A stretch of 64,000 nt of DNA from Escherichia phage humlepung. Positions 3,243 through 13,768 of the stretch are shown piece after piece. The stretch is from sequence record MN850564.1; one strand, given 5' to 3'. The stretch's first letter is position 1. Every line of letters begins with the position of its first letter. A program made the translations under genes and the position numbers. Under the pieces are notes generated by a model. That model was not told where the DNA came from. It ran no database searches and was given only the letters and a program-made list of their open reading frames with translations.

Positions 3243-4595
3243 ATGTGGAATCCAATTGTTAATGTAGATATTACATTGAACACCGCAGGAACTACAAGAG
3301 AAGGTTTTGGTTTGCCACTATTCTTAGCTTCAACAGATAACTTTGAAGAAAGAGTACGTGGTTACACTTCCTTAACTGAAGTTGCTGAAGATTTCGATGA
3401 GAATACTGCTGCATATAAGGCTGCTAAACAACTTTGGAGTCAGACTCCTAAAGTAACTCAGCTTTATATCGGTAGACGCGCTATGCAGTACACTGTATCA
3501 ATTCCTGATGCCGTTACCGAAAGTACAGACTACTCAATTACTGTAGCTGTTGGCGGTGGAATTTCTCAACCATACCAGTACACAGCACAAGATTCAGACA
3601 CTGCTGAGGTAGTGTTGCAACAGTTTAAAACACAGATTGAAGCTGACCCAACAATCAAAGATAAGGTTTCTGTGAATGTAACTGGTAGCAATGGCTCTGC
3701 CACAATGATTATTACCAAAGCTGGTGATAATGACTTTGTGAAAGTAACAACCACAGCACAGACTGTATATATTGCAAGTACAACTGCTGATACAGCAGCA
3801 ACTGCTCTGGCAGCTATAGAAGCTTACTCTACTGACTGGTATTTCATTGCAGCAGAAGACAGAACTCAACAGTTTGTCTTAGCAATGGCTTCTGAGATTC
3901 AGGCTCGTAAGAAAATCTTCTTTACGGCTAACTCCGATGTAACAGCCCTACAAGGTACAGAATTAGCCAGTGCAAATGATGTTCCAGCACAGCTTGCTAA
4001 GAATATGTACACTCGTACAGTTTGCTTGTGGCATCACGCAGCAGCAGAAGATTATCCAGAGATGGCATACATTGCTTATGGTGCTCCATATGATGCAGGC
4101 TCAATTGCTTGGGGTAATGCTCAGCTAACTGGCGTAGCAGCTTCTCTACAACCACCTAATCAGAGACCTCTGACAAGTATTCAGAAGTCTGCTTTAGATG
4201 TACGTCACTGTAACTTTATTGACCTTGATGGTGGTGTTCCAGTGGTTCGTAGAGGGATTACTTCTGGTGGGGAATGGATTGATATCGTCCGTGGTGTTGA
4301 CTGGTTAGAATCAGACCTGAAAACTTCTCTGAGAGACTTGCTAATTAACCAGAAGGGTGGTAAGATTACTTATGATGATACTGGTATTACCCGTATTCGT
4401 CAAGTCATTGAAACCTCTCTGCAAAGAGCAGTCAACAGAAACTTCCTGTCATCTTACACAGTTAATGTTCCTAAAGCCTCTCAAGTTGCTTTAGCAGACA
4501 AGAAAGCACGTATCCTGAAAGATGTTACCTTCGCAGGTATCTTAGCAGGGGCTATCTTGGATGTTGACTTGAAAGGTACAGTGGCTTACGAATAA
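3243..4595 (+). CDS. tail sheath protein (putative)
   Basis: 450 aa; immediately upstream of a 148-aa tube-sized gene, chaperones and tape measure (myovirus order). Confidence 0.5.
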   Translation: MWNPIVNVDITLNTAGTTREGFGLPLFLASTDNFEERVRGYTSLTEVAEDFDENTAAYKAAKQLWSQTPKVTQLYIGRRAMQYTVSIPDAVTESTDYSITVAVGGGISQPYQYTAQDSDTAEVVLQQFKTQIEADPTIKDKVSVNVTGSNGSATMIITKAGDNDFVKVTTTAQTVYIASTTADTAATALAAIEAYSTDWYFIAAEDRTQQFVLAMASEIQARKKIFFTANSDVTALQGTELASANDVPAQLAKNMYTRTVCLWHHAAAEDYPEMAYIAYGAPYDAGSIAWGNAQLTGVAASLQPPNQRPLTSIQKSALDVRHCNFIDLDGGVPVVRRGITSGGEWIDIVRGVDWLESDLKTSLRDLLINQKGGKITYDDTGITRIRQVIETSLQRAVNRNFLSSYTVNVPKASQVALADKKARILKDVTFAGILAGAILDVDLKGTVAYE

Positions 4596-4610
4596 TAGAG
4601 GTAAATTGGA

Positions 4611-5057
4611 ATGGCTATGTATCAGCAATATTCCCCTAAAGACGTTGTATGTAGCTGGAACGGCATTGCTATTGAAGGCTTTGCTCCAGACTCATTCTTG
4701 CGTCTACAGAGAACATCACCACTTGTGACACCAGTTGTTGGTGCAGGTGGTCAGGTTGCTCTGACACGAAATGCAGACAAGACAGGTACTATTGAGATTG
4801 AGCTAATGCAGACTTCTCTCTCTAACCAGATGCTTTCTGCAATTCAAGCTAAACAAGACAATATGGAACTTGAAGAAGATATCTCTTCTAACTTCGTAAT
4901 CTACGACCCATCAGGCTCTGTTCTGGCAACTGGTATTAACGCTTGGTTGCAGGAGTTACCACAGATTGAACTTGGTCGTGACCAGAACTCTAAAACTTGG
5001 ATTTTTGGTTGTGAGAAGTTAGACTACACTTCTACAATTCCAGCGTCAAGTGTTTAA
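4611..5057 (+). CDS. tail tube protein (putative)
   Basis: 148 aa between sheath and chaperone genes; followed by a strong terminator. Confidence 0.5.
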   Translation: MAMYQQYSPKDVVCSWNGIAIEGFAPDSFLRLQRTSPLVTPVVGAGGQVALTRNADKTGTIEIELMQTSLSNQMLSAIQAKQDNMELEEDISSNFVIYDPSGSVLATGINAWLQELPQIELGRDQNSKTWIFGCEKLDYTSTIPASSV

Positions 5058-5069
5058 TAAATCCTATAA

Positions 5070-5103
5070 GGGGGAGACTTTAAAAGGTCTTCCCCTTTTT
5101 TGT
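5070..5103 (+). terminator. rho-independent terminator after tube gene
   Basis: GGGGGAGAC...GTCTTCCCC hairpin followed by T8. Confidence 0.6.
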
Positions 5104-5129
5104 TTCTTTTAAAGTATTAAGGAATCACA

Positions 5130-5528
5130 ATGAAAACAGAATCTAGAGTAATTAATGGTAAGAAAGTAAATATCGTTCTGCTTGGGGCAAGAGATGGTAT
5201 TAAGATGTCTATGAAGTTGGGTAAGATTGTTGTCCCAACCTTTGCACAGATGCTATCAAGTCTGACTGACAAGGGTAAGAAAGAAGCTCCAATGGTTCCA
5301 TTTAAAGAACTTGTTGAAGCTTGTTTTGACAGAATTGAAGAAATTAACCTTGAAGAGATGGCTACCCTGCTGTTTCAAGGGGCAACTGTTGATGACTTCC
5401 CACTTAATATTGATACGTACTTCCAAGCAAACTACGGTGAGTTTATTGATTACTTAGCATTTGCGCTGGAGGCAAACTTCGGAAGTTTTTTCGAAGCAAG
5501 CATTTTCAAAAGCCTAACTTCTCAGTAA
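5130..5528 (+). CDS. tail assembly chaperone (G-like, putative)
   Basis: 132 aa between tube and tape measure; RBS AAGGAA; contains T6C slippery run near its 3-prime end. Confidence 0.45.
   Translation: MKTESRVINGKKVNIVLLGARDGIKMSMKLGKIVVPTFAQMLSSLTDKGKKEAPMVPFKELVEACFDRIEEINLEEMATLLFQGATVDDFPLNIDTYFQANYGEFIDYLAFALEANFGSFFEASIFKSLTSQ
5486..5492 (+). other. candidate -1 programmed frameshift site T_TTT_TTC
   Basis: Heptamer in frame 0 of 5130..5528; the -1 frame is open from 5450 to 5770. Confidence 0.35.
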
Positions 5529-5530
5529 AC

Positions 5531-5769
5531 ATGGGTAACACTCTACAGACACCACTAACTGATGCTGCTGTAGAGGCAACCTATGAAGAAGCAGACGAGA
5601 TGAAATTTGTGCTTGCTATTTATGGTATGGAAGGGTGTAAAGAAACACTTGACCAACTCTTTGCTATGACATTCTCTGATTTATTATCATTGAGACAATT
5701 TCTTGAGATTCAGAGGTCGTATAAAGAGGAAATTGCTTACAACGAACTTAGAAGAGCAGGAAAAATGTA

Positions 5770-5770
<1 letters not shown>
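5531..5770 (+). CDS. tail assembly chaperone extension (T-like; -1 frame relative to upstream gene)
   Basis: 79 aa from ATG 5531; lies in -1 frame of the preceding chaperone, directly upstream of tape measure. Confidence 0.4.

Positions 5771-13768
<7,998 letters not shown>

Follow-up and report, generated by a model that had tools for sequence, protein, structure and literature searches.

The closest described counterparts of the tail assembly chaperone pair of Escherichia phage humlepung (sequence record MN850564.1) are found in the genus Mooglevirus. The humlepung pair occupies positions 5130–5770 of the 64,000-nucleotide (nt) stretch of this record that was analysed, referred to here as the window. 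Its two small open reading frames (ORFs) are very probably joined by a −1 ribosomal frameshift at a slippery heptamer, T_TTT_TTC (5486–5492), predicted to yield a fusion protein of 213 amino acids (aa). The Mooglevirus phages Moogle, Michonne, Mordin, Mijalis and Maleficent (Ounavirinae) carry homologous genes in the same order and with the same T_TTT_TTC, and the predicted humlepung fusion is 70% identical to theirs. For Maleficent, a joined coding sequence (CDS) with this very junction is already on record: the fusion that we predict for this phage matches AYR00813.1, AKU44019.1 and YP_009177317.1 letter for letter, and the Moogle counterpart is 212 aa long. A tape measure chaperone frameshift is mentioned in the genome announcements of Moogle and Mijalis (PMC4319497, PMC5543628). 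Mooglevirus is a different genus from Felixounavirus, to which humlepung belongs and in which the join is generally unannotated; in both cases the evidence is in silico only.

At the level of the family, a report of December 2025 describes an invariant GTTTTT close to the TAC-N gene's 3′ end, with an uninterrupted −1 frame, in the Vandenendeviridae and in 231 phages of the Andersonviridae (PMC12846349). Its Andersonviridae include the Ounavirinae, and it presents no analysis of the register of the motif, of Shine-Dalgarno-like elements or of downstream structure. With a sister-genus annotation and an in silico family report in place, the tail chaperone −1 frameshift is already known here. The additions made in the present study are modest: family-wide codon-level statistics, an extension of the site, unlike in that report, to the Vequintavirinae and to uncultured phage contigs, the lack of a 3′ structure in humlepung, and a candidate 5′ Shine-Dalgarno-like stimulator at a fixed 13-nt spacing.

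Three better-studied systems offer partial likenesses. The E/E+E′ genes of phage P2, like the humlepung pair, form a myovirus chaperone pair between the tube and tape measure genes, with a heptamer of six T followed by one other base and no 3′ hairpin. The P2 shift of −1 takes place at TTTTTTG, and no downstream hairpin was found there (PMC3091744, citing Christie et al. 2002). The two pairs differ in the last base of the heptamer, which is G in P2 and C in humlepung, and in the lengths of their products (91 and 142 aa in P2, 132 and 213 aa here). A Pfam scan at E ≤ 0.1 revealed no sequence homology to P2 E, and the likeness is one of mechanism only. The G/GT genes of phage lambda share the genomic position, the logic of a short protein and a fusion, and a −1 shift placed late in the upstream ORF (PMC5009743). 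No sequence homology is detectable between the lambda and humlepung pairs. Lambda is a siphovirus, its heptamer is G_GGA_AAG, and its G/GT pair is reportedly treated by Levin et al. in 1993 and by Xu, Hendrix and Duda in 2004. The G/GT-type class of programmed −1 frameshifts is ordinary among tailed phages and has long been known. The dnaX gene of E. coli resembles the humlepung site in combining a heptamer with an internal upstream Shine-Dalgarno-like sequence at a spacing within 9–14 nt. The dnaX signal consists of A_AAA_AAG and a strong 3′ stem-loop and reaches an efficiency of about 50%. The humlepung site differs in having no 3′ structure, and a role for its Shine-Dalgarno-like sequence is only inferred.

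The slippery heptamer and its conservation

The upstream ORF of the pair (ORF1, 5130–5528, + strand) encodes, in the zero frame, a TAC-N or “G-like” tail assembly chaperone of 132 aa. Residues 9–124 match the Pfam family PF21822, Phage_TAC_15, at 71.0 bits (gathering cutoff 22), and the protein matches phrog_1613 (tail assembly chaperone) at 2.9e-48. The downstream ORF (ORF2, 5531–5770, + strand) lies in the −1 frame relative to ORF1 and encodes 79 aa that match phrog_4963, also a tail assembly chaperone, at 2.8e-55. The −1 frame is closed by TGA at 5447–5449 and is open from 5450 to the TAA at 5768–5770, and ORF1 ends with TAA at 5526–5528; both frames are consequently open over 79 nt (5450–5528, + strand). 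The heptamer T_TTT_TTC lies on the + strand within this overlap. The zero-frame codons at the site are AGT TTT TTC, in which TTT TTC encodes Phe120 and Phe121, and a script check placed them in the X_XXY_YYZ register. No other in-register X_XXY_YYZ heptamer occurs in the overlap. From the heptamer the −1 frame continues for 92 codons and a stop (5492–5770, + strand), the TAC-C or “T-like” part. The predicted fusion thus has 121 + 92 = 213 aa, with the junction ...NFGSFF followed directly by RSKHFQKP....

A preliminary description of this region, made from the letters of the DNA, had placed two small genes in frames 0 and −1 between the tube and tape measure genes, with the −1 frame open from 5450, T_TTT_TTC in the overlap near the end of the upstream ORF, and an upstream product of 132 aa. 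Every coordinate that it gave is confirmed, and the Pfam and phrog matches of the flanking genes agree with it as well. The fusion of about 214 aa that it proposed differs only trivially from the computed 213 aa.

Judged from the arrangement of the frames and from the comparison with relatives given below, ORF1 and ORF2 almost certainly constitute a single tail assembly chaperone gene with two modes of decoding. Most ribosomes would read 5130–5528 and release the 132-aa TAC-N protein. A minority would slip back by one base with two Phe-tRNAs on UUU UUC (5487–5492), re-pair with UUU UUU and continue in the −1 frame to 5770, producing a 213-aa fusion of TAC-N with a C-terminal domain. Help for the slip would probably come from a GGAGG sequence that pairs with 16S rRNA in the manner of dnaX, rather than from downstream RNA structure. 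If the analogy to lambda G/GT and P2 E/E+E′ holds, the N-terminal part common to both products would cover the tape measure protein, and the additional domain of the less abundant fusion would bring in tube subunits; both proteins would be absent from the finished virion. For E. coli, the H_HH.U_UU.Y class, which includes U_UU.U_UU.C, is listed with the −1 motifs of highest efficiency, and the motif occurs in IS3-family elements too (Sharma et al. 2014, PMC4066793).

Conservation among relatives gives the heptamer its weight. Ten named lineages share an unvarying, in-register T_TTT_TTC that follows the conserved motif N[FY]x[SC]FF, down to a protein identity of 26–30%. These lineages span the Ounavirinae and Vequintavirinae and comprise Felixounavirus, Mooglevirus, Suspvirus, Yersinia phage P778, Kolesnikvirus, Pectobacterium phage Arno162, Avunavirus Av-05, Certrevirus CR3 and phiTE, and the Vequintavirinae phage LTH01. 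Among 77 IMG/VR loci collected with a TAC-N protein profile, every one has T_TTT_TTN in register within the overlap of the zero and −1 frames, down to 23% protein identity. The −1 ORF after the heptamer runs for 83–130 codons or longer in 76 of them, the exception being a locus truncated by the end of its contig. The last base of the heptamer is C in 64 loci, T in 7, A in 5 and G in 1. In six of the 77 the second heptamer codon encodes Leu (TTA or TTG) and the T-run is nevertheless retained, which points to selection on the nucleotides rather than on the protein. At the codon level, an NNT codon for Ser or Cys followed by TTT is present in 39 of 39 non-redundant lineages, where the backgrounds are 37–40% and 47%, respectively.

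The peptide encoded in the −1 frame is conserved as well. Directly from the heptamer on, the pattern FF-R-x-x-x-[FY]-x-[KE]-P is shared across lineages, and it is followed by a variable linker and then by a conserved C-terminal domain. Between Felixounavirus and the Erwinia Kolesnikvirus phages, the only DNA similarity in the chaperone gene that blastn can detect is an island of 41 nt (5475–5515, 92.7% identity), which covers the heptamer and the first dual-coding codons. The G/GT-type −1 frameshift put forward in the preliminary description is thereby supported by 77 of 77 loci and by the conserved −1 peptide, as it is by the relatives without a usable start codon considered below.

A shift of +1 is excluded, because in the relatives checked the +1 frame closes soon past the ORF1 stop. 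Positions 5504–5507, 12 nt to the 3′ side of the heptamer, contain an in-register U_UUC tetramer (ATT TTC) whose conservation extends over the Ounavirinae. Among tetramers in E. coli, U_UU.C ranks second in its tendency to shift (PMC4066793), and this one could serve as a minor secondary −1 site with a different junction peptide.

Flanking sequences and points against a frameshift

An internal Shine-Dalgarno-like GGAGG (5468–5472, + strand), a candidate dnaX-type 5′ stimulator, is found 13 nt 5′ of the heptamer. Of the 39 lineages, 30 have GAGG or GGAGG at exactly this spacing, where the baseline is 8% of 19-nt windows. The Glu codon responsible for the GAGG is GAG in 31 of 36 lineages (binomial P ~1e-8), compared with a background for Glu of 39% GAG overall and 29% before codons starting with G. 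When the lineages are grouped at 50% identity into 22 clusters, GAG is used in 16 of the 20 that carry the Glu. Shine-Dalgarno-like stimulators of −1 frameshifting are effective at a spacing of 9–14 nt, as in dnaX (reviewed by Atkins et al., PMC5009743).

Several observations weigh against the frameshift reading. GGAGG is absent from Kolesnikvirus and Certrevirus, which keep the heptamer, and the element is therefore not obligatory in the family. For the 60 nt 3′ of the humlepung heptamer the folding energy is just −3.4 kcal/mol (z = +1.1), a stability equalled or exceeded by 98% of local windows of 60 nt, and an Rfam scan of 5300–5800 at E ≤ 1 returned no match. In-frame X_XXY_YYZ heptamers occur at a background rate of 0.004 per codon in the long ORFs of the window, and about 0.10 are expected by chance in the 26-codon overlap. 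TTTTTTC is not enriched in the window (20 observed against 28 expected, with only 2 on the + strand). The heptamer of a single genome is therefore weak evidence and suggestive only; its significance comes from its conservation among relatives. Part of the amino acid conservation at the site also arises by construction, since the seed peptide ended at the first Phe and included the [SC]F residues, a circumstance that does not extend to codon choice. The ATG at 5531 lies only 2 nt past the ORF1 stop, which permits a separate 79-aa product by termination-reinitiation. Finally, no experimental detection of the 213-aa fusion in the Ounavirinae or in Felix O1-like phages was found in the literature searched.

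The preliminary description had suggested looking for a downstream hairpin or pseudoknot as stimulator, and folding and the Rfam scan revealed none. By the dnaX-type criterion of a stable stem-loop 5–9 nt 3′ of the heptamer, no candidate is present in the window. The only notable hairpin, at about 5530–5585 at the start of ORF2, has a perfect inner stem of 8 base pairs (CUCUACAG/CUGUAGAG); it was rejected as a stimulator, as it begins 37 nt from the heptamer and reaches a z of −1.87 in a fold of 5493–5600. A consensus scan also picked out a terminator-like hairpin at 5466–5482, before the T-run. It is weak, with 6 pairs including G-T, and is judged to be a by-product of the conserved Leu-Glu-Ala-Asn-Phe-Gly codons. 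A phage-encoded tRNA-Phe as modulator of slippage was rejected, as the 64,000 nt of the window contain no tRNA genes.

Among the 39 lineages the 60 nt 3′ of the heptamer have a mean z of −0.5, and a convincing hairpin is seen in some GC-rich relatives only. Three GC-rich IMG/VR contigs (L078, L080 and L081) have a stable hairpin about 7 nt 3′ of T_TTT_TTC, with z between −2.6 and −3.5. Stimulators on the 3′ side look lineage-specific, with none in the AT-rich phages related to Felix O1. Because the humlepung site has no 3′ structure and GAGG is conserved at 13 nt with a bias toward GAG codons, we propose that the signal in this phage consists of the heptamer and a 5′ rRNA-pairing element. A broader version is offered tentatively: the whole of Phage_TAC_15, covering the Andersonviridae, the Vequintavirinae and many uncultured myoviruses, might possess a two-part cassette in which codon choice holds GAGG at exactly 13 nt from T_TTT_TTN and this dnaX-like 5′ stimulator substitutes for a hairpin in AT-rich members. 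No description of a conserved 5′ stimulator for phage tail chaperone frameshifts was found in the literature examined.

Start signals of ORF2 and alternative explanations

The ATG at 5531–5533 (+ strand), used by gene callers as the start of ORF2, is probably not required. The 22 nt 5′ of it contain no Shine-Dalgarno-like sequence, and one is present in all 18 other genes of the module. In a Felixounavirus contig (L022, IMGVR_UViG_3300045988_004167) this ATG is replaced by ATA (1902–1904); the TAC-N protein of the contig is identical to that of the window, and the next start codon of its −1 ORF is 69 nt further. The −1 ORF of Kolesnikvirus, a region that is unannotated or truncated in the records, has no start codon for about 170 nt past the heptamer, a distance that reaches far into the conserved domain. 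Certrevirus has its first such codon about 195 nt downstream, and many uncultured relatives likewise lack one for 100–200 nt. In these phages, therefore, the conserved domain could not be translated on its own. In Yersinia phage P778 the −1 frame opens just 3 nt 5′ of the heptamer.

The alternative that survives best keeps the frameshift fusion and adds a second route in Felixounavirus, by which a free 79-aa C-terminal protein would be made from the ATG at 5531 by translational coupling. An ATG within 2–14 nt of the ORF1 stop is kept in Felixounavirus, Suspvirus and Mooglevirus, and such close spacing of stop and start permits reinitiation without a Shine-Dalgarno sequence, as is generally known and also reviewed (PMC5009743). 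Outside these three genera the ATG is not conserved, and it is lost in L022. Moreover, we know of no role for a free T-like domain in the lambda or P2 systems, which also counts against a second route. We regard the existence of both routes as unlikely, while giving it clearly more credence than the two explanations that follow.

A second alternative is transcriptional slippage, in which RNA polymerase would add one U on the run of six T and the resulting U7 mRNA would be read normally. The protein of 213 aa would be the same, so that annotation cannot separate this mechanism from a ribosomal one. The site is a homopolymer, and runs of seven or eight T occur in 7 related loci. The genome of Escherichia phage CL1 (OK040806.1, 601–1242) has seven T in place of six at exactly this site and hence a single in-frame ORF of 213 aa (UCJ01344.1). 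The extra T could be a sequencing error in the homopolymer or a natural variant that makes the fusion alone. It shows that changes of one additional T do occur, whether made by a polymerase or by a sequencer, and what a transcript with one added U would encode. Productive runs in bacteria are, however, usually longer, with 9 A or T cited (PMC5009743), and the six T followed by C found here fall below the typical 8–9 or more. The run is held by selection at six T and a C in 64 of the 77 loci, with no lengthening, and the conserved GAGG at a fixed 13 nt would have a purpose only if the mechanism were ribosomal. In P2, TTTTTTG is the site of a −1 frameshift (PMC3091744). Taken with the run length, these points leave transcriptional slippage improbable, and a −1 ribosomal frameshift at 5486–5492 the preferred explanation of the fusion.

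The weakest alternative, two independent genes with ORF2 made solely from the ATG at 5531, for example by termination-reinitiation, and with a coincidental heptamer, can appeal to the position of that ATG just past the TAA, to the two separate CDSs in most Felixounavirus records (the Felix O1 RefSeq entry among them) and to a probability of ~0.1 for a chance heptamer in the overlap, but such exclusive independent initiation is very unlikely and hardly credible, because many relatives lack a start codon, no Shine-Dalgarno sequence precedes 5531 and L022 has ATA, and it also runs counter to the conservation of the −1 peptide 5′ of 5531 and to a heptamer that is invariant at the codon level in 39 lineages. 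Translation of ORF2 from 5531 alone, the scenario that the preliminary description had set against its own proposal, is thus contradicted by the comparison with relatives.

Neighboring genes and annotation

Region 4600–5800 is 100% identical to Salmonella phage DaR-2019b and to the Escherichia phages heid and adrianh, and shares 98.6% identity with Felix O1. On the basis of this near-complete identity, humlepung is assigned to Felixounavirus (Ounavirinae, family Andersonviridae). The gene order around the chaperone pair is that of G/GT-type pairs, with the chaperones (5130–5770) between the tube and tape measure genes. Upstream are the sheath gene (3243–4595, phrog_205) and the tail tube gene (4611–5057, + strand; Pfam KPP10_Orf10, phrog_280). 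Downstream is the tape measure protein gene (5770–7977, + strand; Pfam TMP_3, phrog_4036). ORF1 is preceded by the Shine-Dalgarno sequence AAGGA, and the tape measure gene has its own, AGGAAA. Apart from Phage_TAC_15, the Pfam scan of the chaperone gave one unrelated sub-threshold match only, and a PDB sequence search with the TAC-N profile gave no meaningful match.

The TAA of the −1 frame overlaps the ATG of the tape measure gene at 5767–5772 (ATGTAATG). Only ribosomes that have frameshifted, or that have initiated at 5531, would end translation at the start codon of the tape measure gene. A strong hairpin resembling an intrinsic terminator (5068–5097, + strand), located between the tube gene and the chaperone genes, has a stem of 13 base pairs, 6 of them GC, followed by the T-run TTTTGTTTCT. 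The same element carries the label “terminator” in phages Barry and Tribble, and it would let less transcription pass on to the chaperone and tape measure genes than the sheath and tube genes receive.

Most Felixounavirus records, including both Felix O1 entries, list two separate CDSs for the chaperone pair, and the 213-aa fusion of the window is absent from a collection of 15 billion proteins. The main value of the present result is for annotation: the pair is probably best described as a single gene whose products are a 132-aa protein and, by frameshift, one of 213 aa. The result refines known biology and describes no new phenomenon. Felixounavirus phages are widely used in the typing and biocontrol of Salmonella and E. 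coli, and correct models of their structural genes are of practical use. The strictly conserved T_TTT_TTN sites, down to 23% protein identity and with a Shine-Dalgarno-like element at fixed spacing, also form a clean natural series on frameshift efficiency, relevant to what a 5′ rRNA-pairing element contributes to it and what 3′ hairpins, where present, contribute.

Existing labels for the region vary. The 79-aa ORF2 product is wrongly called “head closure protein” in Salmonella phage SUT_S820, and in VpaE1_ev78 the chaperone region carries the labels head closure, tail completion and sheath. In AF320576 a minus-strand ORF157 is annotated at the equivalent of window positions 5117–5272. A near-identical 132-aa chaperone is found in a Staphylococcus hyicus assembly (WP_252560994.1), where it probably represents contamination.

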